This document shows positions 8,166-64,000 of a stretch of 64,000 nucleotides of DNA, piece by piece. The notes below the pieces were generated by a model. That model was not told where the DNA came from, searched no databases, and saw only the letters and a list, made by a program, of their open reading frames with translations. The translations under genes and the position numbers were made by a program. The stretch covers positions 75,642,001 to 75,706,000 of the forward strand of contig OZ076409.1 in the NCBI GenBank assembly GCA_964187785.1, written 5' to 3'. Each line of letters starts with the position of its first letter. The stretch's first letter is position 1. The stretch comes from Amphiscolops sp. MND2022. Lineage: Eukaryota.

Positions 8166-9468
8166 GTGGCCACGACCATGGTTTCTTGCGTATCTTGTCG
8201 AATCCTTTGTCGTTGCCGGCCGGGGAGGGACCCGTTTGCCGGCGTGTGTAGTGTGGGGCCCCCATACCCAAAAAGTGGTATTTTTTTCAGAGATCTCAAA
8301 ATCGGCCCGTCAGAATTGCCTGAAATTTGGCATGAGGCTCCCAATTGGGGAAAAAATAAGAAGTGTAGGAGGCGACTTGTTCGGGTAAATATTGTATGTT
8401 GACTTTTGGCCAAAATTGTGTTCCCCCCCAACATGGGCAAAATCACATGAGGTGTAAAAATATGATCACAACTTTTGAACCTTTGGATTTAGGGGTACGG
8501 TCGTGGACCACATTAAGCAAGAGCTTTGGTGAGCGGGTAGGATAGATGGGTTTTGATCCCAGTACCTTCAACCACTTTTGAGAAATTAACGTTTCAAACA
8601 AACATCCGGGAGGTATCTGTTGCCCCTGAAGGCAGGTTTTTCGCCATTTTCAATGTGAAGGAGTGGGTTTAGCGTAACGTGTGTGGGGTGCTTTTTTGTT
8701 GCCCGTGTGCGGAGCGTTGTATAGAGGTGCTGGTTGTTGAAATTGGAAAAGTTGGTAAAAAGTTATACCTATACCCCCCTACTGTCTCTGCCATTCAATT
8801 TTTTTTTCAACTTCAGGCATCCCAAAGGTGAAAAACTTCCACACAACTAGTATTGCAAGTGAATGCATGTGGAAAGTACTCGGATAGACGAGAAAAATGA
8901 GCTATAGAACGACTCTGTAGCTTAACTTGACGTTGACTTATGACATTTTGAGTGTGAGCGTGCTATGTGAGAAAAAAATTCAAAATTGAAAATCGAAGCT
9001 GTCTCATCCAAAACTCATCGAAATACGTTCAATCCATCCCAAAGCGGTCAAATTCAAGCTATATAGTGCAGCAACACTATTCAAGACCATTTGACACAAT
9101 TTTACTAGTTTTGACATTGTATGTATTATTCATCCGAGAGCACAAAACAGTTGGGTACATTCCATCTCCCTTTCGGGGGAGATGAGAATGTACCCGCTAA
9201 ATGACACGCACCATGGCCTAATTTTTACCTTTATGCGACGTTTTCTAGGCTTTCGCGCAAGCCCACTAATATTTACACTGGTTTCATTCTCTTTCACTCC
9301 AAACTTTCCGTCCGTACTAACCACCTTACACACCACCAGCTCAACGACACATCTGTAACGTCAACGCCACATACTTGCATCAACGCCCACCGTCCGTGGG
9401 CATGCCGAGGCATGCCCTTCGACGACGTATGCCCGTTGTCACAACAGGGCGCCCCCATTGTCCGCTAG
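8166..9468 (+). mobile_element. 1303-bp unit (GTGGCCACGACC head family), near-identical to 3792-5095
   Basis: Same sequence as 3792-5095 but with different neighbours. Confidence 0.87.
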
Positions 9469-46096: not shown

Positions 46097-49000
46097 GTGC
46101 CGGTGTTTTTTTACACAATGGGGGAAGTTGCGCGGTTGGGGAGGGTCCCTGACGCGCTTCCGTGGTATCGGGTCTTTCAACCGATGAAAACGACATAAAA
46201 AATTGGGATCTCGAAAACTAGCCATACGATTTGGCTGAAATTTGGCACACGTACCCCCCTCGGCACGGTGAAGATGATTCCCTACTGACGTTTTTCCCGC
46301 TAAACATTTTTTGTTGACCAAAATAACGGTTTTTGGGGTAAAATTTTCAACTTTTTTTAAATTTCATCTTATATCTCGCCACGGGTACACGCTAGCGCTT
46401 CCAAACCTTGCTGACGAAAGTTTGCAAACTGTCTCAGGAATGCTGTGTGAAAATTTCAGCTCAATCGGACTTGAACTCGAGGAGATATAGCGTTTTTCCG
46501 GAGCGGGGGGGTTTCATTTTTCTAACGGTCCAGCTTATCTTTGCCATTTTTTCGAAAATGCACTCGCCTAAAGGCCCCCCCTGGCCGGTTTTATTCCCAG
46601 CAAAACCATTTGGCCCTAAATACGGAGTTTCAGCGTTCCAGCATTCACGGGCGAAAAGTTGTGGGACTTAGAAAATTTCAAAAATTTTCAAAAAAATTTT
46701 TTTCCGTTATTTGGGCCCCCAAAGTGGGGGAAAAGACCCCCCAACCAGTAAAGCAAGTGAATGCATGTGCAAAGCCCTTGTTTAGAGGAGAAAAATGCCG
46801 TTTAGAACGTCTTTTTATCTTGGCTCAACGTTGACTTATGACGTTTTGAAGGTGATGTTTGGAGGTGTAAAGCACGTGAATAGTAAACGTTATGAGTATT
46901 TATCTGATCTGGAAGCCATTGAGATGCAATATGGTTTGCTCAAAACGTAATTCATGGCAGTTTGGCAATCAATCAACACCCTTTGTTGTCGTTTGACATA
47001 CTTTTTTGTTGTTATAATGAAAAATTTTGTGTATTTATTCATTTTTTCTCATCAAATAACTTGAAACAGTTGAGTACATTCCATCGCCCCCTTCCGGGGG
47101 AGATGAGAATGTACTCGCAAAAAGCACCGAACTACGGCCCTTACCTTCCCGAGCTACGCAGTATAAGGATTACATATTGGTTCCGACATTTTCAAGAGTT
47201 AAATCTTGGTAATCTGTCTGGATATGCAGAAAAATCAGCACGTGCCTTTTAATACCAAGTTGCTCACAACGACATTTATTTTATATCAACGCCCCCATAT
47301 TTATCAACGCCCCCCGTCCGTGGGCATGCCGAGGCATGCCCTTCGACGACGTATACCAAGATATGTTCGAGCGCGTTAGCCTAGGTGCCGGGATTTCTAT
47401 TCGTTCAAGGATGTTGCGCGTGTGGGTAGGGCCCCTGGCGCGCTCTTTTATTTCGGGTACACCTACTCCAAATTCACGATGTGATTTCGACGATCTCGTA
47501 AACTAGCCACACGATTTGGCTGAAATTTGGCACACAGCTCCGTTGGAACATTGTAAGAACAAATCCCTACTGACGTTTTGCCCGCTAAACATTTTTTGTT
47601 GGTCAAAAATGCGATTTTCCGACAAAATTTTTGACTTTTTTTTCTTTTTCAACTCATATCTCGCCACAGGGTTACGCTAGCGCTTTGCAACCTATGATCC
47701 TTTTTTGTAGGGCATTGCATGTAGAACACGTATGCCAAATTTGGTGGCGATCGGACTTAAACTCAGGGAGATATAACGATTTTTTAGGTGCATTTTTTGA
47801 CATTTTTTGCTTTTGCTGATTTATCTTTGCCGTTTTTTGCCCAGATTTTTTTTGAGACACTCTCCTAAAGACCTCCCCTGGCCGGTTTACCTCCCAGCAA
47901 AACCATTTGGCCCTAAATACGAAGTTTCAGCGTTCTAGCATTCCCGGGCGAAAAGTTGTGGGACTTAGAATAATTTTTTGGAAACGCAAAATGTGTAAAG
48001 TCAACTTCAGGCCTCCCAAAGTCAGGGAACTTCCACACAACTAGGATTGCAAGTGGATGCATGTGGAAAGTACTGGGATAGACGAGAAAAATGAGCTATA
48101 GAACGACTCTGTAGCTTAACTTGACGTTGACTTATGACAATTTTAGTGTGAGCTTGCTAAGGGGTCCGAAAGTCAAAAATTGAAAATTGAGTTATTCCAA
48201 AGCAAATACTCCTTTATATAGGCTAATTAGGTATCAGTAACGTGAAACACGGTTGTACGGAGCGATTATTATCATAGGCGATACGGTTCGTTCAAAAAAA
48301 TGTCCAAAAATTTTTTCTCTTTTTTCGTAGGTTTTTTGTCTAGGATTTTTTTCTTTGGTTTTTTCCTTAGGTTATAGGTGTAGGTTATAGATTAGGCTTT
48401 TTCTAAGGTCCTGTTTTGCTTTCCCTGTTCACTGCATAGTTTGTTTTTAGTGGCAGAAGAAGACGACGACGACCAAGCATACGAGTTTTTCTTTTTTTTT
48501 CCTTGGGTTTTCTTCGGGTTAATGGCTATCCCGAAACCAGGTGCTCCTGCTCGAGGGCTTCTCGGGCGCTGGTTTCGTGTATGGGGCTTTCCCCCCCAGT
48601 AGGTAACCTCTGCCCAAATTTTCAAACGTCCCTCGTAATTCGCATTTTGCCGGTGTCTTTTTTTTACGGGCGTTTCGTCGAAAAAGATAGAATTTTTCTC
48701 GGAACCGGCAAAATCGGAAAATCAATCACAAAATAAACGACGTCGAGAAATCAATCAGACTTAACGGCGTCCAGTTGCTACAAAGAAGAAGTACAGATTA
48801 ACCATGCTTCAGTTTCAGGTGCCAATCAATCAAGCTCAAGATGTCTTTTTTTGTAACTTATTAAATAGTCCATAAAATTATGGAAATTAGGAAAATTTTC
48901 AAAGGTTGGTTTTTTTTTGAAATTTAATGCAACTTATTAACATATGTGCCAAAGCTTTTGAAAGCATTAGGAGAAATCAATATAAAGTAAACCAATATGC

Positions 49001-49966
49001 AGTTTAACTGTTCTAACTTCCTTCAGTTTTAGTTCACAGATGAAGATTCGCCGTAGCGATACGTAACGTTTTTTATCTAAATCGAATTTGCGGAGACTCA
49101 ATCTGCCTATCGTTCGCACGGTCGTTATTGAGCATAAATTACGCTCATTGAAAAAGTGCGTGATCAGCGTCGTTCAATTTTTACGTGTAATTATCATAGG
49201 TGCCCATATGTTAAATTGTAAGAATAGAGGTAATAGGTTTTCAAAATCCGGCTCATCAGAAGTTAGCTTGCGGCGTTATGCTGAAGGCCCTTCTGATGAT
49301 GCTATGTCCCCCCTTTTTTAGTGGGTAACCTATGCCCAAATTTTTTTCCAGCAATTTTTCCCAGCATTTTTGTTTTTTGTGAGTCTTAACCAAAATAATT
49401 TCTGATACATATTTTTGATTAAATATTACTTCTTAAAGTAGCTTTTCATTGAATGGTTTTAATACAATCAGAATTGTTTTTCCTTGTAAAGTTTTTTTGT
49501 AATATGAGTTTGTAACTGATGTACATGAGAATGAATTCCACCAATAAAAGACTCGAAACCTCTTGTACTGTATGTTTGATGTATGTTTATTTTATACTGA
49601 GAGTCAAGTAGGACATTACGTCTCTCGATCAAATCATAGATTTTCTTCGCTCTTTTATTTCGTTAATTGCTATTTTCCAAGTGGAACCGCTTCACACATT
49701 TGATTTTGCAAAGAAACATTGAACAAAGGTATTGTTTTAGCATATTTAGAATCAAAATTGAATTTTTCACGTTTGAAAGATTGTAAGATTTACAAGTTCT
49801 CTGATTTTATCCATCGTCTAAAACTTGATTGACTCGATTTTGGTAATTGTTCCAGTGGCGCTTCAACTATTAATTCGATTTCATTAGCCAATTCGGTTGA
49901 TCCGTATCAAATTTTAGTCCCAATGAGATACTGAAATGTTCAATTTCGTTTCATATTTTCAGGGAT

Positions 49967-52900
49967 ATGCCTCCAAGGAGAAATCGGAGTGTTAGAAACA
50001 AGTGCTCCCGGTGCCGTGTGTTTATCCCTCAGTCTTCGACTTTGTGTGCCAGTTGTGCATCTTCCTCCGCCGAGGTAACTCATGACAACGAAGACAGCAG
50101 CAGTGTTTCTATACCCAACGAAGACAACCCTCGGAACATAGTTTACCCTCCTCGTTGTACATTATGTGGATTACATGAACAGTCACAAGGCCAACTTTGT
50201 TGTTTTTGCTGTCCTGTTACTTTACCCGTTTGTACAGATGCAGAATGTCAAAAGTGCCGAAGAATTACCTGTTCATCACTGAATTCAATTTCTATGGCAG
50301 ATGTAAAGCAGACCGCGTTTGGTTGCCGATTACCGGGAGAAGCATCTGATTTTGCAAGACTGTGCAACGAGTGTACTCATTACGCAACACATGGCTTCCG
50401 ATCGCCATGGAGGAATATTTGGCCATGCGTCGTTTTAGATTTCCTCAGTGGTAAATATAATGGAATTGCTGATGGAAAACCATTCCATAAAGTGTTGCCT
50501 ACTTCTATTTTGGAACAATATCAACATCTGTTGCAGTTTAACACTGATGAAAAAGAGACTGTTTTTGCTGACCTGACACACAAACTGCTGGAATTCAAAA
50601 GTTTAAAACAAAACCTCAACATTGATGGAGTGCAGAAAGCCCATAACAAGTACAGTTTTCCAGAAGTTCGCTGTCCTTTTGGTTGTACTGAGTTCGTTGG
50701 CGACACGGGATTAATACCCTTGCAATACTTTCTTCTGACGTTAGACAAAAACTTTGCTTTTAACGGAATGAAGTGGAAAAGGCGATTACGTTGTGTTCGA
50801 CCAGATTGGTTGACCCCATACAATCACAATGATGCCTTCAACGTAAGACCACACATTGTTGTCGACGAGAAACAAGGACTGTGTCTTGCAACCTGTAAAT
50901 TCCACAACGGGGGATCGCACCAGTTTTTCGTCCATCCACCTACAAATCCCACTGGCAGATTACCCTCGAAAAATGCAGATCGTCTTGGTCCAGCTACAGT
51001 TAGTTATAACTGCTACAAACCAAGCAAGCCCAATTTTTCCACTCACACCTTTTCAATGGGTGTGGCTAAGGGTAATTTCTCCGGAATTAGTTCGACCACA
51101 ATTGCCTGTAAGCGAAGGTGGGATATCGCATTTGGTGAAGATGACGTCGTAAGAGAGTCTCTTTGTTCAAACAAACGACAGGATATAAAACCGCTGTTAC
51201 AAAAACTTGTGCACAAAGGAGAGTTATCACAGAATCTCTTTGATAGCATTACATCAATTGAAGGTTTGCCTGACGATCAAACAATTCTGGAATGTTTGAA
51301 GACTGCTACATCCGTCCCTTTGGAGTTAGCTCTTGCATTAAAGAAAATTCAAGAAGAAGGATTAAATGTAAACTATTTTCCGGTATTCTCCCATCCTTTC
51401 ACAAAATACGGATGTGATCCACCTGACACAGTTGTAAACCAGTCAATGCCGAAATATTTATGGATTTATGCTGTAATGTTTGCTTTGAGTTGCAACTTCC
51501 ATTTGTCTCTTTTGAAATTCATTTCAACAGATAGTGCCTTCAAAAATGTGTTCCATTTTATGCTGATTAATGATGGTAGACTGGCTGATAAAAAGAAACG
51601 AGAACTTGCAGAGTTCCTTCAACGTTATTCACAAGATCCTAGTTATGACATGGTTGACAGTTTGGAACAATTGCTAACAAACATATCTTTCGTCAAACAC
51701 TTCAATGTAACTGACAGAGAAAGTGTTGAATCAATTTTGAAATCTCTGACCGATGACAAAATTGTAACTTTCATTACCAATGCAAGGAGAAGAGACGATG
51801 GTTACTTGCCGGATAGAGTGGTAACTACGAATGGGTCAACATCATACGAACTACGATCAATTGCTGTCACTGAGGGCGGCAACGTAAAAACACTCGTTAG
51901 ACATGGTAATGAATATAATTGTTGGTGGATATACTCTACAGCTCATGAGACTCCATCAAAAATGGGTCTTGAAGATCTGGTGGAGATGAACAAATTTCAT
52001 TCTAGTTGGTTGTCCTGCCATTACGAGATCATTGGTTCAGTTGACATGCAGAGAGAAAAATACCAGTACTTGGAATATTTAGGAGGCCAAGGACGATTCA
52101 TTTGTGACGATCATCATGTCCCTCTTACAGTAGCCAGAAAAAATACTCCGACTCTTTGTTCGTTCAGTACCAGCTGTCAGCGAAAACCCGCTTGGAATTG
52201 CCCGTCGGAGAACTGCTTGTCGTCAGTCTGCCGTACTCATTTCGCACAACACCAGCTTAGCAATGAACGTTTCTTTGTCAAATGCCCCACTTCAAATTGT
52301 GACGTTGTTCCTCCACATTCTGCTGAATGTTGTGATGATGATGTAGTTGTTTCTGAACCCGAATCAGACTACGATGAATTTTCTTTTACAAATTTCACAA
52401 CCGACACTGGTCATGTTGAAAATATGACAAATTGTTGTGCTACTGATTCTGGAGACATGCCGTCAGTCGTTGACAGTGTTGACACATCAATTCCTGCCCA
52501 TATTTTGCTAAACACTGATTGTCATGTACTAGAAAGGAAGAACTACAGAATTGACCGTTCCAAAACAAGTTCTCGATTTTTACAAAACATTGTCGCAAGA
52601 TCATCTGGTAACTCCATCCCTCTCATTTACCCTGACGCAGCACTCTTCCCTACACATTATTATCATGAACAGACGGACAATACTATTACTGGCGCTGTTC
52701 CGGCTCCTCTCTTTTGTGATAAACAGAGCAAACACTTTCTCTTTGCAAGCATTGAGGATCATAAGCGATCAGCTGTTCTGAACCCAAATCTTTTGCAATC
52801 AACCGACGTTAGAAGTATTCAGACATCTTTCGACACCGTGCTGAATAAACGTCTCACTTTTTCCGATACACGTTTGGTTCTCAATCGAGGATTCCAAGAA

Positions 52901-55900
52901 GTGACTGTGAAGACTTCCAAATCAATAACTCCAACTAATCCAAAACTTCAATTTGATCATGCTGATTCTAGAGTACGCGTAAATGAATTGGCCGCATTGT
53001 TGTCTAAAGAACCTGCTACATTTTTTCTGACACTCACTTGTAACCAGAAATATCACTTTGGGGTAGCACCAATTTTTGAAGCTATTGAAAATCGATTCAA
53101 CAGAAATAATAAACAAGAGTACGAGAGAGCAGTTCAAGCTGAGATGGTGCTACTAACAAGAGCTTGGTATAGATCAGCTGAAGCTTTAATGGAATGGATC
53201 GAAAAATCTCCCGACCAACCACTTGGAACTGTCACCAAAATTTGGTATCGCTATGAGTTCCAGTCTACCAAAGGGAACTTACCGCACATTCATTGCGTCA
53301 TATGGACAAAAGAAAGCAAAGCTGAATTACAACACAAGGTTTCATGCTCTGGATCATCAGCTTTATTCGAATTGAAAAAAATAGCAGCTGAAACAAATGT
53401 AATTAATAGTGATCAAGTTTTCGATTTGTGGACTCAACTGATGACAATCCAAACTCACTCCTGCGAAAAGGCAAACTATCGCTGTCACAAAATTGTCAAA
53501 GACGACGGGTCAACAATATGCAGAGTTCCCCGTTACCCGCATTCAAACCGATATTCCTGGAGAAAAGTCCCATCAAGCCATTCGGAAGAAGCATTGCAAG
53601 TTCTTCATTACCTTGACTTGGCCACACCCTCGAAGTCTCATGACGATACCTTCGAAGTTTCAGAGAGTCTTCAAGGAGGCAAATTCGAATACCCAGCTTC
53701 AAGTGACGAGCACCTTTCCCCTTTTAACCCACTTGTTTTCATCATTACGATGTCTTCGCAAAACCTTCAATTGTGTGACGAATACTTATCTGCAAGGTAT
53801 ATTGCAAAATATGCAGCAGGGATCGAAGAACGAGCTGATGCACGTGTTGATCCGGTTTCCTTCAATGAAATTAGAATTCACACTAAAGGAATTAATAATT
53901 CGAAAATTTCCAGTTGCCGTATCAAAGAAAAAAGTACAGATAGAAAAACAATTGTTCAGATAATTCCTCTCGTTGAAACTGTTTGGTGGTTATTGAGTTT
54001 CAAATATGTTCACAGTTCTGTTTCCTTCGTTCATTTATCGACTCTTGAAAAGTCAGAACGAACGTCTTTCATCACACCCAGAAAAAATACAAACCCAACC
54101 CAGCCGTTACCTTTACATGTTACAAAAAGTTTCACTTTACCACTGTCGCGCCAATTCACCCAATCACAGTTGTTGGTTTTAAAAGATTCTATGACAAGTG
54201 AGCATTCTAACTGCAAAATGACAGTTTTTAGCGGTAGGCCACCAGCGCTTTTGTGTGTTGATAACCCTCAACTGTATTTCACTTGGTTCAACAGAGTTAA
54301 TATTCGGCATCCCCAGGATACATTGAATCATGATGTTAACAATTCAAAATGGATAGACCTTTTCGGACGTGCTGTACACTTGAGACGTTGCTATCTTGAT
54401 GACTTTTCCACTTATGTCAACAATCTCAGAAGAGAGGGACATATCAACTTGTACCGATTCGATGAAGATACATCGATTTTGTTTCTACAAAACGACTGTT
54501 TGGGATTGAAAACAATAGACGATTCTCCAGTTCAAGTTGTGACATCAAACATTGTGCCAAATAATCGTCGAAAATTTTTGGTGCACTTTGTTCTATCTAA
54601 CGGGAAGTTTGAGACAGAACCAGATCTATTCAATCATCCTAGCATGATGGAGGTTTTCATCAACTGCAAGTTACTGCCATCAAAAAGTTCTTATACACAA
54701 CAAGATGCCTGTGATCTAGTGAAATTTTACGTTTTGTCGGAACTCAAATACCTTCCTGGGGCAAGCAGATCGTTCGATCGTCATTTGTTATGTTGTTACG
54801 ACTTGATGACCAATCTTGTTCTTCATAACCAGATTCATTCCGAAGCTTTGCCCTCAACTCTTCATTCAGAAATAACCGAAAACGCTGAAATTGATTACAT
54901 CCTCCACAGTAACGAAAAACGAGAGCGAAGTGTTCAAGGTTGCCTCTTAAATCCAGCTTTGATGCCATTGCAACCACACAAAGATTCTTTCGTCGCAGCC
55001 ACCCGCAGTAACCCGTTTGTGTACAGTTTTCCGTTTCCTCGAGCTCCCGGACAGTCGGACGAATCAAACACTTTTCAACAACGTGTGTTCAACGGGTGCA
55101 TTCAGAAATTGACTAACTTTATTGAAACAAAAGACGGTTTCGTAAAACATCAATTGTTTTTGGGGCGTCCGGGAAGCGGCAAAACACTCATCTGCACAAT
55201 GATATATCTGGAAGCTGTGGCGAAAGGTCTCAATTGTGCAGTAACTTGTCTAAGTGGAGAGCGAGCCCAACAACTCGGTGGCGAACATGTCCACAAACTA
55301 TTCAAGTTCAGAGTAAACAAAATACAGAATCCCGAAATAATGGCTTCCCAGAGTTTGAAAAGTCTTCTCAAGGATGTCACAAGGTTCACTGAGCTGGAAC
55401 GCCTTGACGTACTTTTTATTGATGAAGTGGGCCAGCTGAATTCTGAATTGATGATAGCTATGGAAATTGTTCTACAATCTGTACGAGAAAACAAACTGCC
55501 AATGGGAGGAATCTTCACAATCCTAACAGGAGATCCGAAGCAATTGCGCCCTCCACAAGGATCATTGACATGGTTGTCACCGAAGATGCTGACAAATTTT
55601 GATTTCCACTACTTTAAACACTATGTTCGAGCAAAGCCTGGATTGTTGCGACAGATACTGACTAAATTAGATGAACTTGATATCAGCCCAATCGAAGCAT
55701 CAAATATTGCAAAGGAAATTGTAGCCAATTGTAATATCCATTCAACTTGGGACAATGTTGGTGACAACTTTGACATGCGTGTTTTCAGCACACGAGCCGC
55801 TGAAAAACAGGCTGTTACACATCATTTTGAAAAAATTCTGGCTGACCAAAGTTGTGTAAATGTTGTGTTAACTGCTAATGATGAAGTGAGTTCTACTGGT

Positions 55901-56950
55901 GCATCAATTTGGCGTCCGGCAGGTGACATTGAACAAAAAATCATCGATTCCACATCCATCACTCCCCGACAACTGCTCTTGTATAAGAAAGCGCTTCTCA
56001 GATTTACAGCCAACCTCCCCAACATTCAGGCTAGGCAAGGACAATTGTGCCTAATTTTGGAAATACCAACCGAAACAGCATCTTCTCTGGACGTTTGGAT
56101 TGCACCACCAGGTTGCCGGACCGTCACAAATTTCGACGAAAATAACCTCATTACATCTGGTTGGCGCAAAGTCTCTATTTCAAAAGTGTTTACACCTATA
56201 ATGACTAACAACAACAAATTCCTAAGGAGATACTCTTTCCCTCTCAAGAACTATGTGGCATCCACTATTCACAAATGCATTGGTGACACGTTCCCAAAGA
56301 TTGTTACCAAAGTTTCACTTACGGACAAACATTACAAAATTTGGGAAAAAGAGCAACTTCTTGTGTTGTTGAGTAGAGTCAGTAAGCTCGACGACATAAC
56401 GTTCGTAGGTGAAGAACACGAAATAGAATTAACTTTAACTGCTGCCATTCAGCAAAAGTCCTGCTGGGGAACTTTCATCAATAACCTTCTGGAAAAATTG
56501 GCCTGTACTCCCTCTGACCTGACGCCGCCAACACTCAACCTCCTTTCTTCAAATATTGTACCTTGGAACATTGTCTTACCCGAAGACAATGTAGGCTTTG
56601 TGTATCTTCTGGTAAGCACGAAGATTCCGAATGTTTATTTCATTGGAGAGGCTCTGGAAATTCGGCGAGAATTGAAAGTTATCAACTCTGGAAATGGCGC
56701 ATCCGAAACACGCCCAATCGAACGAAGGCCATGGGCAATCTTAGCATTTGCAACAGGTTTCAACACCGAAGATTCTTCCAGCAACAATACGCAAAGAAAA
56801 TCGCTTGTATCGAAGATGAGAACGCAATTTACTTCCCTTGGATTAAACTTCACCACCGTGGAATTGTTTGAAACGTTCAAAGAATCAACGAGAACATATG
56901 CTGACGAACGTGATCTAAATTTGAGAGTTATCCAGTGTGGCAGTGTTTAG
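49967..56950 (+). CDS. Helitron-type RepHel transposase (2327 aa): Cys-rich N-terminus, HUH/Y2 replication initiator, Pif1-family SF1B helicase, C-terminal GIY-YIG-like domain
   Basis: Uninterrupted ORF. Rep motif I FFLTLTCN (aa ~1019, nt 53021); motif II YRYEFQSTKGNLPHIHCVIW with HUH = HIH (aa 1107-1109, nt 53285); motif III YIAKY (aa 1278-1282, nt 53798). Helicase motifs: Walker A GRPGSGKT (nt 55163), Walker B FIDEVGQL, GDPKQLRP, HYVRA, FPLKNYVASTIHKCIGDT, VLLSRV. C-terminal GFVYLLVS...YFIG...NSGNGA..T...RRPW from nt 56594. The ATG lies just after a pyrimidine-rich AG (49961-49962), suggesting a 5'UTR intron. Confidence 0.95.
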   Translation: MPPRRNRSVRNKCSRCRVFIPQSSTLCASCASSSAEVTHDNEDSSSVSIPNEDNPRNIVYPPRCTLCGLHEQSQGQLCCFCCPVTLPVCTDAECQKCRRITCSSLNSISMADVKQTAFGCRLPGEASDFARLCNECTHYATHGFRSPWRNIWPCVVLDFLSGKYNGIADGKPFHKVLPTSILEQYQHLLQFNTDEKETVFADLTHKLLEFKSLKQNLNIDGVQKAHNKYSFPEVRCPFGCTEFVGDTGLIPLQYFLLTLDKNFAFNGMKWKRRLRCVRPDWLTPYNHNDAFNVRPHIVVDEKQGLCLATCKFHNGGSHQFFVHPPTNPTGRLPSKNADRLGPATVSYNCYKPSKPNFSTHTFSMGVAKGNFSGISSTTIACKRRWDIAFGEDDVVRESLCSNKRQDIKPLLQKLVHKGELSQNLFDSITSIEGLPDDQTILECLKTATSVPLELALALKKIQEEGLNVNYFPVFSHPFTKYGCDPPDTVVNQSMPKYLWIYAVMFALSCNFHLSLLKFISTDSAFKNVFHFMLINDGRLADKKKRELAEFLQRYSQDPSYDMVDSLEQLLTNISFVKHFNVTDRESVESILKSLTDDKIVTFITNARRRDDGYLPDRVVTTNGSTSYELRSIAVTEGGNVKTLVRHGNEYNCWWIYSTAHETPSKMGLEDLVEMNKFHSSWLSCHYEIIGSVDMQREKYQYLEYLGGQGRFICDDHHVPLTVARKNTPTLCSFSTSCQRKPAWNCPSENCLSSVCRTHFAQHQLSNERFFVKCPTSNCDVVPPHSAECCDDDVVVSEPESDYDEFSFTNFTTDTGHVENMTNCCATDSGDMPSVVDSVDTSIPAHILLNTDCHVLERKNYRIDRSKTSSRFLQNIVARSSGNSIPLIYPDAALFPTHYYHEQTDNTITGAVPAPLFCDKQSKHFLFASIEDHKRSAVLNPNLLQSTDVRSIQTSFDTVLNKRLTFSDTRLVLNRGFQEVTVKTSKSITPTNPKLQFDHADSRVRVNELAALLSKEPATFFLTLTCNQKYHFGVAPIFEAIENRFNRNNKQEYERAVQAEMVLLTRAWYRSAEALMEWIEKSPDQPLGTVTKIWYRYEFQSTKGNLPHIHCVIWTKESKAELQHKVSCSGSSALFELKKIAAETNVINSDQVFDLWTQLMTIQTHSCEKANYRCHKIVKDDGSTICRVPRYPHSNRYSWRKVPSSHSEEALQVLHYLDLATPSKSHDDTFEVSESLQGGKFEYPASSDEHLSPFNPLVFIITMSSQNLQLCDEYLSARYIAKYAAGIEERADARVDPVSFNEIRIHTKGINNSKISSCRIKEKSTDRKTIVQIIPLVETVWWLLSFKYVHSSVSFVHLSTLEKSERTSFITPRKNTNPTQPLPLHVTKSFTLPLSRQFTQSQLLVLKDSMTSEHSNCKMTVFSGRPPALLCVDNPQLYFTWFNRVNIRHPQDTLNHDVNNSKWIDLFGRAVHLRRCYLDDFSTYVNNLRREGHINLYRFDEDTSILFLQNDCLGLKTIDDSPVQVVTSNIVPNNRRKFLVHFVLSNGKFETEPDLFNHPSMMEVFINCKLLPSKSSYTQQDACDLVKFYVLSELKYLPGASRSFDRHLLCCYDLMTNLVLHNQIHSEALPSTLHSEITENAEIDYILHSNEKRERSVQGCLLNPALMPLQPHKDSFVAATRSNPFVYSFPFPRAPGQSDESNTFQQRVFNGCIQKLTNFIETKDGFVKHQLFLGRPGSGKTLICTMIYLEAVAKGLNCAVTCLSGERAQQLGGEHVHKLFKFRVNKIQNPEIMASQSLKSLLKDVTRFTELERLDVLFIDEVGQLNSELMIAMEIVLQSVRENKLPMGGIFTILTGDPKQLRPPQGSLTWLSPKMLTNFDFHYFKHYVRAKPGLLRQILTKLDELDISPIEASNIAKEIVANCNIHSTWDNVGDNFDMRVFSTRAAEKQAVTHHFEKILADQSCVNVVLTANDEVSSTGASIWRPAGDIEQKIIDSTSITPRQLLLYKKALLRFTANLPNIQARQGQLCLILEIPTETASSLDVWIAPPGCRTVTNFDENNLITSGWRKVSISKVFTPIMTNNNKFLRRYSFPLKNYVASTIHKCIGDTFPKIVTKVSLTDKHYKIWEKEQLLVLLSRVSKLDDITFVGEEHEIELTLTAAIQQKSCWGTFINNLLEKLACTPSDLTPPTLNLLSSNIVPWNIVLPEDNVGFVYLLVSTKIPNVYFIGEALEIRRELKVINSGNGASETRPIERRPWAILAFATGFNTEDSSSNNTQRKSLVSKMRTQFTSLGLNFTTVELFETFKESTRTYADERDLNLRVIQCGSV

Positions 56951-57019
56951 TTCATTTGGGTTTACAAATATTACACTGTAGAAGTCTCTGAGAATGGACG
57001 ATAGATGAAGCATGTGAGG

Positions 57020-57050
57020 TTGCCCCGGCCACGCAGTGAGCCGAGGGCAA
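57020..57050. other. GC-rich stem-loop ~70 bp after the RepHel stop codon
   Basis: TTGCCC-CGGC-CAC-GCA-GTG-A-GCCG-A-GGGCAA; the arms are complementary. Confidence 0.6.
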
Positions 57051-57510
57051 GCTTTATTCAAACTATAGATGAACATCCTTTTTTGTTGAAAAGTTCTTTG
57101 ATTATACTTTGCCTTTGCTCATTTTTTCAACGTTCCTTTGTAAATATATACTGATAAAATTGTCACCCGTTGATAATATTACCAGTTGACACTGAAGTTG
57201 ACACCAGTCAAGAAAAAAAATATTTATCTGACTGGAACAAAAAAAGACAAAAAAAACAAGATGGCAAGATTGTTGAAACAGTTCAATTCTTCAACTTCGA
57301 TAATCTTTTCCTTAACATATTTTTACCATCACGTGGAGGGAAATAGAAAAACATTTCTACAGTTAATTAGTTCGAAAGAGAAAAATTAGACAGTATTTAG
57401 ACGCAGTAGTGATGTTGTACATCGAAAGAAATGAAAATGTGTCGAGAAACATAACTTTATTGTGTTTTTAGATAGCTTTGTCTTCAATCGAGACTGAAAC
57501 AAGATTCAAA

Positions 57511-58901
57511 ATGCCCATCATTAATAAAGATTTGTCGGCAGATGAGGCAGCCACCAGAACAATCAGTAAATTAACAACGTGTGAACTCGATGAAGTGATG
57601 GAATCTAATGCAACGGATCGGAAGTACATGATTTGTACATTGCTTTACGCCAAAAAATGTGTGAAATCAGTATCGTATTTTAAACTAACGAATGGACAAA
57701 AGCAAAAACAGGAGGCTACATTTAACCGTTTTGTCCTTCTGGGAGTGATCGGAAAAGAGAAAGTAATGGCAATATTTACCTACACCCAACTAGAAAGCGC
57801 GGAGTTGTTGCGTTACTGTTCTGCATTACAACCAGGAAATGCGTGCGCCTTAATACGCCCTAAATTCGATAACAAGTATATGGGATCATCATCCACTACC
57901 CCAATCATACTAACTTCTGAGCCACTTGTGCCTCTGAACATCAAGAATTACCCTGATGTCAGCTGTCCAAGAATTGTATCATCACCGGACTTTCAACATT
58001 TCTACATGAAAACGAAAGATTTGAAGCTCGATAATATAGATGCCATTGGAAACGTGTGCAATGGGACCTTCTGCGATGGTCAACCGAAGGGCGACTGTCC
58101 TTGTTTAGAGGTCGACAACCGGAAAAGCAGCTGGATCATTACTGCGGATGTGAAATGCAGTGGGTTGTATCACTCATCAAAAATACGATCAAAACGATTG
58201 ATAACGGTATTCGCTCCCAAATGTAAGTCGGCGGACCCTAACAAAAGAGAATTTGATGTCCTTGATTTGGGCGATTGTATTGAAAACTGTGTTGAAGCAG
58301 TAAATGCCAAGAATGGATGGGAAATTTTCGGTTGGGTGAAACCAAACGAATCTGCTCTAGAGTTTACAAACTATGAATGCGACCTACACATTATACATCT
58401 TCAACCTATCGAAATTACAGATGTAGAGTCAGGTAAACCTAAAATTCAAATATTTATTTTTCCAGTTTTTACTTTCTTTTTTCGCTAAAGTTCTAATTAA
58501 TTTTCGACCAAAATATGTCTAGCAGAATCAAAATATAAATTTTAACAGAATCTCAAACACAACGTTTAGTGTTATTAACAATTGTTTTCGCAAAAGACAT
58601 GAACATTAATTTCACCTTGAACTATTATTTTACAACTTGAGACTAAAACTTACAGTCTTTCTTTTTTTCCCAACGTTATTTTTAAGATGACCGATAATTG
58701 ACAAATGATAAATATACTTCAGATGCATACAAAGCCTTGCAGTATAAGTTGCCCGAAACATCTGCCCCAGAAGTCGAAATGCCCGTCATAGCAACTACAT
58801 CAGGAACAGCTTCGGTTCCAGCAACAGCTCCAGCAACAGCTCCAGAAACAGCTCCAGCAACAGCTCCACCAGATGAACAAGCAGCTTCGGTTGAAAGATG
58901 A
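57511..58901 (+). CDS. Second gene of the autonomous element; predicted two coding exons (57511-58432, 58723-58901), ~366 aa, function unknown, CxGxxCDGQ-x4-CxC motif and Ala/Thr/Pro-rich tail
   Basis: ORF open from 57472, after acceptor-like TTTTTAG (57471), with first ATG at 57511. Donor TCAG|GTAAAC at 58433 and acceptor TACTTCAG| at 58722 are both phase 1 and join in frame (...ITDVES-D-AYKALQYKLPE...). The unspliced read-through (IQIFIFPVFTFFFR) looks intronic. AATAAA at ~59133. Confidence 0.75.
58818..58868 (+). repeat. 12-bp coding minisatellite (CCAGCAACAGCT) x~4 encoding PATA/PETA
   Basis: Read directly in exon 2 of ORF2. Confidence 0.85.
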
Positions 58902-59344
58902 AAATCGCATTATCAACTACGAAAAATGCAGAAATCAAGAGAAGTGACAATGAGCAAAAAACATTGATAGATTTAAAAATCTCGAAACATTTTGATTCAA
59001 TAATGTTATAATGTGATCATAAAAAGATTGCAGAAAAAATAATCTTGAAACCGGTAAAAGATTATAAATATCGTATTGTTATGTTCCTTTAGTTCATATT
59101 CTTGAAATAATGTTAATTTGTTATTTTCAAGAAATAAAAATTCACTTTTTCGTTCCCACAAGAAACTTGAATAGAGTGTTCATAGAAAAAATACGTATGT
59201 TCATAGACTAGTCAATATTTTCAATACAAATATCTGAACTAGTCAAAATACTAATCTTTTCTTTGCTTTCACTCTGGTATGACATTTGCTAAACGTTTGG
59301 TCCTTACAACATACACATGACTAACGTCAACGCCACATACTGTT

Positions 59345-59434
59345 ACCAACGCCCACCGTCCGTAGGCATGCCGAGGCATGCCTTTCGACGACGTATGCCA
59401 AATACCATAAAACCGACGCGCACTCTCCCGCTAG
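59345..59434 (+). terminator. Helitron 3' terminal signal (GC-rich hairpin plus CTAG) of the autonomous element; an equivalent copy ends every unit
   Basis: AGGCATGCC-GA-GGCATGCCT at 59364-59383, flanked by CGTC...GACG; CTAG at 59431-59434. A hairpin followed by CTRR is the established Helitron 3' structure (rolling-circle termination, not transcriptional). Confidence 0.85.
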
Positions 59435-62400
59435 GTGCCGGGATTTCTATTCGATAAAGTATGTGGCGCGTGTGGGTAGGGTCCCTGGCGCGCTCTTGGG
59501 TATGGTGTTCACCAGCTAGGAAATAGGGGTCGATTTTTCGGGATCTCGTAAACTAGCCACACGATTTGGCTGAAATTTGGCACACGTATTCCCCTCGGCA
59601 CGGTGAAGATGATTTCCTACTGACGTTTTTCCCGCAAAATTTTTTTTGTTGTCCAAAATAACGGTTTTTGGGGTAAAATTTTGAATTTTTTTTAAATTTT
59701 ATCTTATATCTCGCCACCGGTTTAGGCTAGCGCTTCAAAACCCTGCTAAAGAAAGCTTGCAAACTGTCTCAGGAATGCGGTGTGAAATTTTCAGCTCAAT
59801 CGGACTTAAACTCGGGGAGATATAGCGTTTTTCCGGAGCGGGGGGGTTTCATTTTTCTAACGGTCCAGCTTATCTTAGCCATTTTTTCGAAAATGTACTC
59901 GCCTAAAGACCTCCCCTGGCCGGTTTTATTCCCAGCAAAACCATTTGGCCCTAAATACGGAGTTTCAGCGTTCCAGCATTCCCGGGCGAAAAGTTGTGGG
60001 ACTTAGAAAAATTCAAAAATTTTCAAAAAAATTTTTTTCCGTTTTCCGCCCTCCCCCCCTAGGGGAAAAGACCCCCCAACCAGTAATTTGAGTGAATTCA
60101 TGTGGAAAGGCCATGTTTAGACGAAAAAATTGCCGTTTAGAACGTCTTTATATCTCAACCTGACATTGACTTATGAAGCTTTAAAGGTGATGTTTGGACG
60201 TGTGAAGCATGTAAAAAAAGGAATTTTTTGATTTTATTTCATCAGAAAGTCATTGAATCACACGCTGTGAAGCCCAGAGCGTGGTTTCTAATAGTTTGGT
60301 ATCGTTTAAACGCATTTTGGTGTCTTTTTACTCTGTTTAAAAAACTTTTCTCCTGAAAATTAATAAATTTTGATTACTTTTCTTACTTTCCATTAATTTT
60401 TTTTTCTTATATTTTTACTTGAAACAGTTGAGTACATTCCATCTCCGTTCCCGGGGGAGATGAGAATGTACTCGCAAAAAGCCGCGAACTACGGCCCATA
60501 CCTTCCCGAGATACGCAGTATAAAGATAACATAATGGTCCAGACATTTTAATGGAGTTGTATCTTGGTAATATGTCTGGATTTGCAGAAAAATCAGCACG
60601 TGCTTTTTTATACCAAGTTGCTCACAACGACATTTATTTTATATCAACGCCCCCATATTTATCAACGCCCCCCGTCCGTGGGCATGCCGAGGCATGCCCT
60701 TCGACGACGTATACCAAAATATGTTCGAGCGCGTTAGCCTAGGTGCGGGGGGGTAACCCCAACTTTTTTCTTGGAGGAATCGGGTAGGGTCCTGATTCCG
60801 AGCTTAGTGCCGCCAGCTATCGTTAAAAACCCATACCTTTTAAACCCGATCTCGGGAACTAACCACGCCCCTTCTTTAATTTTTTGGCCCCCACTCACTT
60901 TTTGAGAGTAGATCGCCCCCCACTGGGTTCGATGTTGGGCAAAAATGGAGGTCATGGGTAACGGGGACCGTTAAGGGGTAACTCAGGGGGTAAAATTTTT
61001 TTTTGCGTCATATCTTTTCCCCCCGTGGATTTAGCGCTTCCGGTCAGCAGACAAAACCTCATGTACGTGATACGGGGCCTCCGTAGGTCCAAACAAAATT
61101 TTTCTATCATGCACCGTTACGGACTTGCCCCCCCCGGCCCAACCGTTATTTTGCCGGAAATTGCACTTTTTGACCGGGAAGGAGTCGTCTGAGCACGGAG
61201 TCGTTTGGTAATGTTTTGTAGTGCATCTGGAGACGTGTTGGGGGACATGTAGTTTGCCGGCCCCAGTTTACCCCCCGGACGGGAAATGACCGTTATGTGA
61301 AGTTTAAAAATGCCCCCCTTCAATTTTCCCCGTAATTTCCGGTGTGAAGGAGTGGGAGTAGGGTGTCGGGTGCCATATATCAAAAGTAGGTTTAGACAAG
61401 GACCAACCGGAAACATGTGGTTTCGGACCCCCTGACCCAACCCGTTAGCCGCTATTACGGTGATCGCCTCCTTTTTTTGCTGTCAAAACCGGAAAACGGG
61501 CATTGAGGGGTAAATATCTCGTGAACGCGTGGAGCAATCGTGTCCATCACTACTACAAGGTTTCATACCCATGATATGGTGCCTTCAGGGGGGCAAACAG
61601 ATTACCGCTATCTATCACCGTTACCGACTTGGCCCCCCAGCCTAACCGCTATGTGACCGGAAATTGCACTTTTTGAGCCCAAAGGGTCGATCCTAGCCGG
61701 GCAACGTTAGGTAACTTATTGTAGTACTCATTGAGACGAGTTGGGGGATCTAGTTTCAGTCACCCCCCGTTACCCCTTGAGACCGGAAATGACCGTTATG
61801 TGAGTAGAATTGCAATTTTTTTACCTTTTGAAGGGCATTTAGGTGCGGAAGGAATGGTAATAGGTGCTTGGACACTATATGATGTAATGGAGGTCGTGAG
61901 GAGAGCATTCGGAAGTAACCGTTACGTTGACCCCAAAGTCCCCCTGGTACCGTTAACAACCGGAAATGGCCAAATTTTGTGTTTATAGGGTACAAATGTT
62001 TGGTATTTTATGGATAAAAGTACCTGGAAGGTGTTTTAAAGGCCTCCAGAAGTGAACATAGTCATGAAACTTTGTGGGGGGTAACGGTATATAGCACCGG
62101 AAGTCCAAACCGTTAGTTACAGAATAGGTTTTTTGGTTTCAAAATGTCTTTAGGCGTAGTTTTGTGGGTTGAATCGTCATAATATCAACTAATACGGACT
62201 TTTTTCGGAAATAAAATTTTTTCACATTAGTTTCAGGGACCTCCAATGTTTCAGTCAACATAACCGTTACATTTTGATAGCCTTTCAAGTTGGCCTGGTG
62301 TCAACTTGGAAGGGCTATCCGTCTAAAATCGTTAATCAAGAGTGTTTTTGGGTAGGTATATGTTGCATTAGTACCAATTAGAGCTTCATCAACAGTTTGC

Positions 62401-64000
62401 CAACGGCAAAAACGATGTCGTGATAATTCCGTTATAAGAATATTAATTAACAAATTGTTTCCAAAGTTGATTTTTTCCATTCGAAATGTGTCCTAATGCC
62501 ACCAAATTGAATAAAATAATAAATGGTATTGACTAAACCTAAATAACATTGAAAAAGAAGCTCAACATTTTTAATAGGTCTCATTATGGAAGCTGAAACC
62601 TCACGTTTTAACTTAATTAACGTCAACGCCACATACTTTACATCAACGCCCACCGTCTGTGGGCATGCCGAGGCATGCCCTTCGACGACGTATACCAATT
62701 ACATATATATCCACACCCACCCGCGGTAGCAGCTAGGTGGCCGTGTCTTTTCGACGTGCTTTTGCATTGAGGAGTGGGTAGGGCCCCGCGACGACCTAGA
62801 AAAATTGGATGCTCACCGAAACGTGCAGAATTCTACGAGATCTCATAGTTTGAGCCATACGATTTTGCTGAAATTTGGCATGTGGCCTGGAATTGGTGAG
62901 TAGGTAAAACGTGTAGGAGGTGATTTTTCCCAAATTCCACTGTGAGACGAGATATGGGCAAATAACGGTCCCAAAAATGGCAAAAATGCACTTTTTTCAA
63001 CTTTGTCAGCCCATATCTCGTTCCCATGTGCCCGGAGCGGGACGCGTTAAGCTGATTATAAACTCTAGGGTGTTGAGGCTGTACGGGGAAGTCAGGCCCG
63101 TTCCGATCGGACTTGTAGTCTTGGAGAAATAACGGTATTTTTGGGGAACCTTTTCTAACGGTCCAGCTTATCTTTGCCATTTTTTCGAAAATGTACTCGC
63201 CTAAAGGCCTCCCCCTGGCCGAATTTACTCCCAGCAAAACCATTTGGCCCTAAATACGGAGTTTCAGCGTTCCAGCATTCCCGGGCGAAAAGTTGTGGGA
63301 CTTGGAAAATTTTCAAAAATTTTCAAAAAATTTTTTTTTCGTTTTCCGGGCCCCCAATGAAGGGGAAACGACCCCCAACCAGTATTTTGAGTGAATTCAT
63401 GTGGAAAGCCCATGTTTGGAGGAGAAAAATGCCGTTTAGCACATCTTTTTATCTTGACTCAACGTTGACTTATGACGTTTTGAATGTGATGTAAGGATGT
63501 AGGAGGCATGTGATAAGTTGATGTTTTGAGTCTTTATCTCATATGAAAGCGGTTGAGATGCAAGCTGTCCTGCTCAAAACGTCTTTCGTGGTAATTTTCC
63601 AGTGCACCAATACCCTTTGGTGTCATATAAACATACTTTTTGTCGATATATTAACAATTTTAATGTATTTATTCCAATTTTTATTATCTTATAACTCAAA
63701 ACAGTTGAGTACATTTCATCTCCCTTTCGGGGGAGATGAGAATGTACTCGCTAAAGACCTAGCGCCATGACCAAAAGTTTGAAACCCACGTTTTTTTATC
63801 TTCTTACAGACTTGTTTTTGTATTTTTTCGGAATTTTTTAAAAATTAAAATACTTGAAATATATTACTTGACTTTACTACTACAACCCACCTCCAACGAC
63901 AACGCCCCCCTGCTTGCATCAACGCCCGCCGTCCGTAGGCATGCCGAGGCATGCCTTTCGACGACGTATGCCAAATACCCAATGCCACGCTGTCATTATC
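59435..64000 (+). mobile_element. Continuation of the array: three non-autonomous units (59435-60742, 60743-62736, 62737 to just past the window end)
   Basis: Same termini. The last unit ends ...GTCATTATC at the window edge, matching the tail at 42781-42820, so it is ~5 nt short of its CTAG. Confidence 0.92.
60743..62736 (+). mobile_element. Long non-autonomous unit, 1994 bp, diverged sibling of 44103-46096
   Basis: Same head and collinear interior with many substitutions; standard 3' hairpin and CTAG. Confidence 0.88.

Follow-up and report, generated by a model that had tools for sequence, protein, structure and literature searches.

The window, by which we mean the whole 64,000-nucleotide stretch of DNA analysed here, is occupied over most of its length by a head-to-tail array of related units, one of which is an autonomous rolling-circle element with two genes. 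The features are listed below; all lie on the + strand.

1118–62739, +: mosaic head-to-tail array of 37 complete units in a single orientation
47385–59434, +: autonomous rolling-circle element of 12,050 bp, junction to junction, bounded by the junctions at 47381 and 59431
47416–47442, +: 5' stem-loop with a GGTAGGG(C/T)CCC-type motif, found 43–61 nt past all 38 junctions
49967–56950, +: ORF1, RepHel-GIY transposase of 2,327 aa, uninterrupted (Met at 49967; single ORF 49901–56950)
53021–53812, +: HUH Rep core of ORF1 (motif 1 at 53021, HUH motif at 53255–53293, YxxKY tyrosine motif at 53798)
55163–56380, +: Pif1-family helicase of ORF1, motifs present from Walker A to motif VI (Pfam PIF1, E = 1.3e-8)
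56594–56950, +: putative SLX1-type GIY-YIG pseudonuclease domain, the last ~120 residues of RepHel
57511–58901, +: ORF2, 367 aa, probable OB-fold single-stranded DNA-binding protein (exon 1 57511–58432, predicted exon 2 58723–58901)
59364–59383, +: 3' subterminal hairpin with a 9-bp stem and a 2-nt loop, 39 copies in the window
59431–59437, +: head-to-tail junction CTAGGTG, the same 7-mer as at 37 of the 38 junctions

Three database proteins differ from ORF1 by 0, 4 and 4 residues. Its Rep core was matched by Pfam Helitron_like_N (E = 5e-8) and aligns with Helitron1- and Helentron-type Reps, while the helicase model resembles Pif1 (E = 2e-28) and Helraiser (7lcc, E = 3e-20); on Helraiser, the helicase was also the best-scoring stretch for the family profile. 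The Helitron-like hallmark, an HUH Rep with a tyrosine motif joined to a Pif1 helicase, is found in ORF1. The nuclease usually present in Helentron RepHel proteins is an AP endonuclease. Pfam detected neither an AP endonuclease nor a DUF6570 in ORF1, and the precomputed Pfam annotation of its relatives held none; one or both occurred in 10 of the 11 HLE2-type controls scanned. ORF2 probably encodes an OB-fold single-stranded DNA-binding protein. Its ESM Atlas features score 0.90–0.92 to POT1/CTC1/MEIOB clusters, which we take as a lead only, and it has no Pfam match; ORF2 homologs adjoin RepHel in L003, L005, L007, L014 and L025.

Element ends and the mosaic array

Non-autonomous elements of 1,262–1,396 bp make up 33 of the 37 units in the window. 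The sequence CT[A/G]GGTG is present at all 38 head-to-tail junctions, with G in place of A (CTGGGTG) at just one; 5.5 copies of CTAGGTG are expected from window composition, and 4 lie on the other strand. We placed the element break after CTAG, the true break being somewhere within the 7 bp of CTAGGTG. The Helitron-like combination of a 3' subterminal hairpin with a CTRR end is present, with CTAG or CTGG at 38/38, and the outer pair of the hairpin is G-C in 35 copies and A-T in 4. The 5' loop motif lies exactly 44 nt past the junction in 30 of 38 cases. Stem-loops lie near both element ends, and hairpins stand on either side of every junction. We rejected the idea that distantly related elements conserve the 5' loop motif (2 occurrences in the 168,696 bases of L001–L025 versus 1.14 in shuffles, p = 0.32). 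The autonomous element matches other units of the array at both ends, its first 810 bp being 87% identical to the unit at 10759–12020 and its last ~175 bp 88% identical to that at 36455–37732. Searching the window against Rfam and for tRNAs returned no matches; the units of the array therefore do not correspond to any known RNA gene.

Clustering at 92% identity splits the 33 short units into 17 clusters, arranged in random order, and two neighbouring pairs of units are 99% identical. Subfamily assignments are linked inside a unit (AMI 0.62) but not from one side of a junction to the other (0.005, p = 0.48). The segment between the hairpin and CTAG goes with the unit upstream of it (AMI 0.55) and shows no linkage to the next unit downstream (0.045, p = 0.25), which places the exchange within 7 bp rather than in longer shared homology; the point at which subfamilies switch is CTAGGTG and not the shared hairpin. 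Every unit adjoins another unit, and neither an empty junction nor an insertion in unique DNA was seen in the window. The random subfamily order and the invariant junction suggest junction-specific joining, in which elements insert into each other's ends; we infer the targeting of junctions from this one array. Rolling-circle concatemers combined with unequal crossing-over could build an array without such targeting, and Helitron tandem arrays are ascribed to concatemers in the available text of two reports (PMC12001565, PMC11934779). The two 99% identical pairs would agree with this origin, which we nevertheless regard as improbable for the window, because the clusters are randomly ordered and the exchange is confined to 7 bp. 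The array is also compatible with Rep joining free circles to one another before they integrate.

The C-terminal GIY-YIG domain

GIY-YIG domains of the SLX1/UPF0213 type read approximately YVYxLxS...YIGxTxDxxRRLxQHNxGxGAxxT...RPW, and a sequence-only reading of the window had proposed that RepHel ends in a catalytically degenerate domain of this kind. On its own, the domain scored below threshold against both Pfam GIY-YIG (E = 0.025, 15.3 bits, cut-off 22.6) and the PDB (UPF0213 protein 1ywl, E = 0.037); the family profile, however, matched Slx1 at E = 3e-13 to 9e-11, and structure comparison agreed. With the AlphaFold model of the domain (pLDDT 88), Foldseek ranks 1–11 were all Slx1/HIGLE chains, and VIA gave Z scores of 10.7, 10.4 and 9.5 (rmsd 2.5–3.0, 105–108 residues aligned), the next chain reaching 6.5. 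As modelled, the domain is confirmed as a GIY-YIG superfamily fold of the SLX1 lineage, with At-HIGLE and Slx1 as best matches. It shares with these proteins (PDB 4xlg, 6seh, 7cq2, 7wme) the fold over the aligned residues and, in register, the YxL..S, IG, RxL..N.G, RPW and GF motifs. It differs from them in the replacement of the YIG Tyr, Arg, His and Glu, in its fusion to a transposase and in the absence of the C-terminal RING, as ORF1 stops 46 residues after V2281, leaving one helix and one strand.

Four of the five catalytic positions are lost, as mapped by alignment to C. glabrata Slx1 and the family rather than by residue-level superposition. Slx1 Tyr26 is replaced by F2225 (56639; Tyr in 28/28 comparison proteins), Arg36, the invariant arginine of the arginine helix, by E2235 (56669), His40 at the proton-relay position by I2239 (56681; His in 28/28) and the metal-binding Glu79 by V2281 (56807; Glu in 27/28). 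The first three replacements had been read correctly from an ungapped alignment, whose register coincides with ours, and the loss of the glutamate had been overlooked. The GIY Tyr is kept (Y2213 at 56603, Slx1 Tyr14), as are R2234, K2237, N2240, RPW (56726), the YIG Gly and the G-x-G/Thr loop. Several basic residues are retained, the charge is +2, and the glutamate helix has no acidic residue. R2234 and K2237 correspond to Arg35 and Arg38 of Slx1 site I; the positions of Lys21/Arg22 of site III hold Ile/Pro. R2234, the arginine previously noted one residue ahead of the catalytic position, was rejected as a shifted catalytic Arg, as it corresponds to Slx1 Arg35 and many intact members have both. 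According to the Slx1 study (PMC4407285), Arg35 binds DNA and is not catalytic, Arg36 belongs to the active site, and the E79Q change eliminates activity; what the two Tyr, the Arg, the His and the Glu each do in GIY-YIG chemistry, with the GIY Tyr as proposed general base, has been described (PMC3045582). The same residues are lost in 12 of the 12 near-identical cluster members that reach the domain, and P0009 and P0010 terminate within it. By analogy with the chemistry of Slx1 and Hpy188I, the window domain would be a pseudonuclease.

The clade and the repeated loss of the arginine

All 53 Rep relatives that reach far enough beyond the helicase carry the GIY-YIG domain, and in 41 of them it is intact. 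Judged from these proteins, the domain is not a private capture of the window element; an ancestrally intact GIY-YIG domain defines the lineage, and degeneracy is a derived and recurrent state. In both the Rep and the helicase tree the clade is separate from the sampled Helitron1- and Helentron-type proteins, with Helitron2, proto-Helentron and the unclassified HELIANO clusters not identifiably sampled and outgroups drawn from a motif scan of GTDB records. AU tests (22–24 rows, LG+G4) rejected nesting with two HLE1-type rows (p = 6e-5 for Rep, 0.013 for helicase) and three of four forced nestings in HLE2-type rows (p = 0.03, 0.004 and 0.019), the fourth being retained (p = 0.16). The earlier suggestion of a distinct Helitron-like lineage is to this extent borne out, but its mark is the intact, not the degenerate, domain. 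A second homolog search with Rep returned 37 family members and no canonical Helitron, IMG/VR yielded neither a relative nor a canonical Helitron motif, and an NCBIfam search gave nothing useful. Some clade members carry OTU (P0247, P0252, P0254 and L023), a feature in common with Helentrons. The window ORF encodes the transposase of a rolling-circle element that has recently amplified and that belongs to a large Helitron-like clade with a C-terminal SLX1-type GIY-YIG domain.

Helentrons (HLE2) likewise combine Rep and helicase with an accessory nuclease domain past the helicase. The clade differs from them in having GIY-YIG instead of an AP endonuclease, in lacking DUF6570, in its place in both trees, in an HUH motif of the form EFQ-x(5-9)-H.H without the canonical RG, and in its CTAG end. 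Canonical Helitrons (HLE1; Helraiser, PDB 7lcc) resemble the window element in the 3' hairpin, the CTAG end and a probable single-stranded DNA-binding accessory gene, and the precise CTAG-joined circles of Helraiser (PMC4778049) resemble its head-to-tail junction; the window element, in contrast, has no 5'-TC start or A-T insertion, carries its hairpin 36–53 nt from the end, keeps the seven-base junction throughout and falls in a separate clade. Sphagnum HelenSM92 was the one printed Helitron-like family with GIY-YIG found in our literature search; the available text describes it as HLE2, with short inverted repeats, TT/TT insertion and a captured domain (HELIANO, PMC11417382). The Paramecium Helitrons (PMC13085455) are described as a third clade, more distant from both HLE1 and HLE2 than those two are from one another, with very long ORFs and proposed target-specific insertion. 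Their target is the telomeric repeat, no GIY-YIG is mentioned in the main text or searchable supplements, and by eye one published fragment seems, weakly, nearer to the HLE2 Y..RP..LE motif than to the F..RPPEL of the clade.

Within the clade the catalytic Arg has changed 5–7 times, to E, C, S, T, A, D, I, L or V, and the fold was retained each time; losses are concentrated in one half of the tree (19/38 versus 1/42). Glu or Asp occupies the position in 7 of 20 Arg-lost proteins, and the recurrence of Glu was rejected as significant, the sequences being related and Glu a common helix residue. In these 20 proteins, which represent several lineages, the tail is full length (167–250 aa) and the core persists (N2240 and P2255 in 20/20, S2217 in 19/20, W2256 in 17/20). 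G2244 and T2248, found in 28/28 of the comparison set, are lost in them. The median net charge is 0 in Arg-lost domains, most of which are neutral or acidic, versus +5 in the comparison set, a contrast drawn on related sequences and including one comparison protein (P0244 of 28) that itself lacks the Arg. Among nine distinct copies the mean pairwise difference of the domain (0.056) equals that of Rep (0.056) and is below that of the N-terminus (0.138), with 22/119 versus 255/781 variable sites (p = 0.002); the stem branch of the domain is 0.91 versus 0.33 for the helicase. Copies recombine, as region trees disagree. These protein-level values suggest that the domain is still constrained; recombination could instead have made the 3' ends of the copies alike and so look like constraint.

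Possible roles of the domain

We favour, with a probability of roughly 0.55, the reading that a recently amplified transposase of this clade keeps its pseudonuclease mainly as a folded cap packed against the helicase, and that transposition by Rep and helicase builds the mosaic arrays. The pTM of 0.83 across 650 aa for the model of helicase and GIY-YIG domain, an indirect measure, is compatible with a fixed domain arrangement. By analogy with Helraiser, Rep would nick inside CTAGGTG, the helicase would then peel the strand off, the ORF2 protein would coat it, and the circle junction would be joined to an existing junction, giving the mosaic pattern seen in the array. In its ancestral form, the nuclease is likely to trim flaps or to nick the second strand when the element inserts; in the window subfamily it may be dispensable, or its task may fall to host nucleases or to intact sister families, which exist at 60% identity (P0005). 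As a counterpoint to the cap, R2234, K2237, the G-x-G/Thr loop and the positive charge leave DNA contact possible in the window subfamily.

The sequence-only reading suggested that the dead domain may recognise branched or hairpin DNA and so help to steer insertion to element junctions. The retained site I residues, the hairpins beside every junction, the concentration of Arg loss in one half of the tree and a long stem branch followed by conservation, as in repurposing, would all suit this role. Arabidopsis MSH1 offers a parallel, as its GIY-YIG domain binds branched DNA with nuclease activity not seen, according to the available text (PMC6902002), although MSH1 is a host organelle protein with measured binding and our domain is known from sequence and model. 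We nonetheless consider such a reader unlikely. Site I by itself gives low affinity in Slx1, and the Lys21/Arg22 positions of site III are replaced; positive charge and the Gly/Thr loop erode in the 20 Arg-lost proteins, so that binding of branched or hairpin DNA is not supported. Junction-specific joining is well supported, but nothing links the domain to it, and Rep recognising its own nick site already accounts for junction recognition. In L011, where the nuclease is intact, a 177-bp direct repeat of upstream sequence follows directly after the ORF, possibly a head-to-tail join (one case), and the DNA context covers one Arg-lost element only. Simple decay, with an unneeded nuclease drifting slowly as a vestige under weak selection against misfolding, would explain the independent losses through different substitutions, the long stem branch, the truncated P0009 and P0010 and the intact sister families. 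It is rather unlikely in our view, since one stop codon could remove the terminal domain, yet the 20 Arg-lost proteins retain full length and core residues, and within the window subfamily the domain is no more variable than Rep. A rewired site that still cuts, with the GIY Tyr as base, E2235 binding metal in place of Glu79 and the neighbouring Arg holding the phosphate, would draw on Y2213, the YIG Gly and the acidic residues at the Arg position. It is very improbable: the site has also lost its proton-relay His and its YIG Tyr, the glutamate helix offers no acidic residue, and Glu is frequent on exposed helix faces. We know of no GIY-YIG site rearranged in this manner.

Beyond the favoured cap, a speculative and doubtful extension would make the clade a third major Helitron-like branch that uses an SLX1-type nuclease to insert at ordinary sites; sub-lineages that switched to their own head-to-tail junctions would repeatedly have turned it into a non-cutting junction reader, and would thereby build safe-harbour arrays, self-targeted and satellite-like, whose unit stays close to 1.28 kb. 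Why some rolling-circle transposases bear an extra nuclease is an open question, and the clade provides a natural experiment, since families 60% identical have the domain whole, half-lost through an Arg-to-Ser change (as in P0004) or fully lost. Pfam-only annotation overlooks the dead domain, along with a large part of the clade. The window defines clean element ends for the clade, and the random subfamily order of its array implies joining at a 7-bp junction; such joining would let a transposon turn into satellite DNA, and may point to a possible sequence-specific integrase.

The C-terminal domain of ORF1

The window contains a single long ORF, encoding a RepHel transposase whose C-terminus the sequence-only reading had called an SLX1-like GIY-YIG domain:

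49901-56950, + strand: ORF1, sole long ORF of the window, 2,327 aa from Met at 49967
from 56594, + strand: GIY-YIG peptide, C-terminal end of ORF1

Pfam identified Helitron_like_N (E 5e-8) and PIF1 (E 1.3e-8) in ORF1, and its Rep and helicase motifs form a complete set. Three database proteins differ from it by 0, 4 and 4 residues, which argues for a recent spread of the family; the identical one is possibly the window locus itself. Pfam gave no clear family for the N-terminal 850 residues (49967-52500), where Cys/His clusters and conserved VRCPxGC, RHG and GQxxxxCxxH motifs were observed. A GC-rich hairpin, occurring once in the window, lies right behind the ORF1 stop (57020-57050); it may act as an internal terminator or mark an old 3' end.

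When the last 149 residues were searched alone, matches were marginal (Pfam GIY-YIG, E 0.025; UPF0213 protein 1ywl, E 0.037), and 20 of 28 homologs retrieved with the C-terminal 400 residues carried a precomputed GIY-YIG hit. The SLX1 likeness was borne out by a 22-sequence family profile, which matched four Slx1 entries and At-HIGLE (E 3e-13 to 9e-11), and by the structure model of the domain (pLDDT 88). Foldseek ranks 1-11 were Slx1/HIGLE chains only, and VIA-align against 48,161 chains gave At-HIGLE at Z 10.7 (rmsd 2.5, 108 aligned) and Slx1 at 10.4 and 9.5, the next chain scoring 6.5.

The proposed catalytic degeneracy also held. Catalytic residues were mapped by sequence rather than by residue-level superposition, with an intact sister domain aligned to C. 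glabrata Slx1 over an ungapped stretch that starts at residue 13 and includes the HN motif. In this register the window domain retains Tyr14 (Y2213), Arg35 (R2234) and Arg38 (as K2237), and has lost the YIG Tyr, the Arg and the His (Tyr26 to Phe, Arg36 to Glu, His40 to Ile), together with Gln39 (to Val). The metal-column Glu79, present in 27 of 28 comparison proteins, is Val (V2281). Within the window's 90% cluster, 12 of 13 members extend into the domain, and none of these 12 has the Tyr of YIG or the catalytic Arg, His or Glu. In Slx1, Arg36 belongs to the active site, Arg35 binds DNA, and the E79Q mutant is inactive (excerpts of PMC4407285 and PMC6902002); the roles of the corresponding residues are laid out for Hpy188I (excerpt of PMC3045582). 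On the basis of this chemistry, we predict the ORF1 domain to be catalytically inactive, with a probability of about 0.9.

A GIY-YIG clade with recurrent loss of the catalytic Arg

For outgroups, GTDB records were scanned for the canonical HUH motif, and the resulting 59 loci were typed by motif as HLE1 (canonical Helitrons) or HLE2 (Helentron type). DUF6570 or an AP endonuclease was found in 10 of 11 scanned HLE2-type ORFs and in none of the HLE1 type; the GIY profile matched none of the 59 motif-bearing ORFs, most of which are truncated. Transposases of the canonical Helitron or Helentron type are found on short contigs in many GTDB bacterial bins; these contigs are probably contaminants from eukaryotes. 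One such transposase (L049) has a UCH domain at its C-terminus.

The 33 GIY-clade rows split from the HLE1 and HLE2 types at a branch with an SH-aLRT of 100 in two trees, one built from Rep (62 rows, without fragment L074) and one from the helicase (46 rows, after removal of five short outgroups); both are unrooted quick searches in which the published Helitron2, proto-Helentron and unclassified groups are not identifiably sampled. Forced nestings, computed on reduced sets under LG+G4, were rejected in five of six cases. The suggestion of a distinct Helitron lineage therefore stands as a separation from the sampled types in both trees, tempered by the one nesting not rejected (p 0.16).

A search with the Rep region only returned 834 clusters (50% identity) at E values of 0.001 or better, 192 of them at 1e-30 or better, and downstream domains were surveyed in the best 150 using a GIY-YIG profile built from 17 intact members. 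Among these best 150 of 834, 60 proteins extend to helicase motif VI, 53 running at least 100 residues beyond it and the other 7 ending too early. All 53 matched the profile, 41 of them with the full set of five catalytic residues and 9 without the Arg. Every GIY domain that a sequence pattern caught in the 25 metagenome loci has its Arg and His. The domain is the mark of a clade, most members of which have it intact.

A helicase tree was built for 80 proteins, a set over-representing close relatives of the window protein. Its 20 Arg-lost proteins need 7 changes, at least five of them forced by strongly supported branches; 19 are among the 38 proteins in one half of the tree, and one is among the 42 in the remaining half. 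Window relatives at 60% identity comprise one intact family (P0005), four with Arg to Ser and two with Arg to Cys and His to Ile. Two relatives, P0009 and P0010, terminate at an identical point inside the domain, directly behind the linker strand, reflecting an intron or a common truncation. Different RepHel families occur on contigs of equal size (e.g., 1,297,008 and 1,394,692), which suggests that intact and dead families sit together on the same contigs.

The only Helitron-borne GIY-YIG found in the literature is Sphagnum HelenSM92, typed HLE2 (PMC11417382, in part); a search for Helitron with GIY-YIG gave no other such case in the partial texts covered, a scope excluding Repbase reports and most subscription journals. 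Excerpts of other papers link GIY-YIG to elements other than Helitrons (PMC6431247, PMC3627910, PMC9977147, 10.64898/2026.09.17.752431), and Helitron with SLX1 gave unrelated titles only among the matches listed. Paramecium Helitrons have been published as a third clade, which targets telomeres (PMC13085455); the text and searchable supplement of that paper hold no mention of GIY, and its domain figure, outside this scope, could bear on kinship.

The head-to-tail array and ORF2

The entire window is a head-to-tail array, in which the following longer units and gene segment were distinguished:

47385-59434, + strand: autonomous element, 12,050-bp unit, both ends common to short units
5096-8165: longer unit, 3,070 bp, array-type ends
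44103-46096: longer unit, 1,994 bp, array-type ends
60743-62736: longer unit, 1,994 bp, array-type ends
58723-58901: predicted exon 2 of ORF2, the element's second gene; Pro/Ala/Thr-rich tail, 12-bp tandem repeat

A 9-bp hairpin is present in 39 copies, four with a compensatory outer pair; CTAGGTG (once CTGGGTG) follows at 38 sites, 36-53 nt downstream, and a second stem-loop motif lies 43-61 nt past every junction. There are 37 complete units, 33 of 1,262-1,396 bp and the others of 1,994 (twice), 3,070 and 12,050 bp. Clustering at 92% identity sorts the 33 short units into 17 groups, and their lowest pairwise identity is 54%. Across the array (1118-62739), the length of these units is near-constant despite a median pairwise identity of 71%. 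The three longer units contain no ORF of at least 150 aa, and no stretch over 100 bp from inside the 3-kb unit is matched elsewhere in the window.

Within a unit, the 3' type can be predicted from the 5' type (AMI, a measure of linkage, 0.62; reached in 0 of 2,000 shuffles), and no linkage was detected between a unit's 5' type and the neighbour's 3' type (AMI 0.005, p 0.48). Hairpin and CTAG are separated by a variable stretch that is linked to the upstream unit (0.55), not the downstream one (0.045), so exchange takes place within seven bases rather than in the longer shared homology. Junction-specific joining is likely, and the pattern fits joining by Rep, either between circles or into the chromosome; the same kind of junction occurs on Helraiser circles (PMC4778049, in part).

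ORF2 looks like an OB-fold protein from its language-model features, which are a lead only, and its homologs adjoin distant RepHel in five metagenome loci. In locus L025, a 7-kb segment behind the RepHel ORF (5781-12864) has 134-bp inverted repeats, an ORF2 homolog and a short RepHel fragment. In locus L023, a stem-loop (200-225) whose tip matches the window's 5' loop motif lies 0.9 kb ahead of a distant RepHel that has an OTU hit at its N-terminus; as a conserved feature this motif was rejected, its count being compatible with chance.

Persistence of the degenerate domain

Among nine distinct subfamily copies, per-site difference was 0.056 in GIY-YIG and Rep, 0.038 in the helicase and 0.138 in the N-terminus. 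Variable sites numbered 22 of 119 in GIY-YIG versus 255 of 781 in the N-terminus (p 0.002; versus Rep plus helicase, p 0.12), in a comparison at the protein level among recombining copies, and this recombination weakens the test. The dead domain is likely still under selection. The domain has a long stem branch, at 0.91 against 0.33 in the helicase.

Twenty Arg-lost proteins were set against 28 comparison proteins, all picked by hand and one of the 28 itself without the Arg. The tails of the Arg-lost proteins are of full length and retain the core residues Pro, Ser, Leu, Asn and Pro-Trp, while the otherwise invariant G2244 and T2248 are lost. So is the positive charge, with a median of 0 against +5 (p 0.0003, from rows that are not independent). 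A helicase plus GIY model (pTM 0.83 over 650 residues) fits, but does not establish, a fixed arrangement of the two domains. Taken together, constraint, retained core, lost charge and loop, and this model lead us to favour a structural role for Arg-lost domains over a general switch to DNA binding. In the window's own subfamily, where the domain has a charge of +2 and the Gly/Thr loop is still present, DNA binding is possible. The proposed involvement of the dead domain in junction targeting seems unlikely, DNA context covering one Arg-lost element. In locus L011, which encodes an intact RepHel-GIY, a 177-bp direct repeat (93%; 6394-6570 and 15114-15287) flanks the gene, its second copy just behind the ORF. 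It may be a head-to-tail join, which, if real, would count against a link between dead domain and targeting.

The RepHel-GIY elements are a barely described clade, in which the window element shows a pseudonuclease state that recurs and a mosaic array joined at its junctions.
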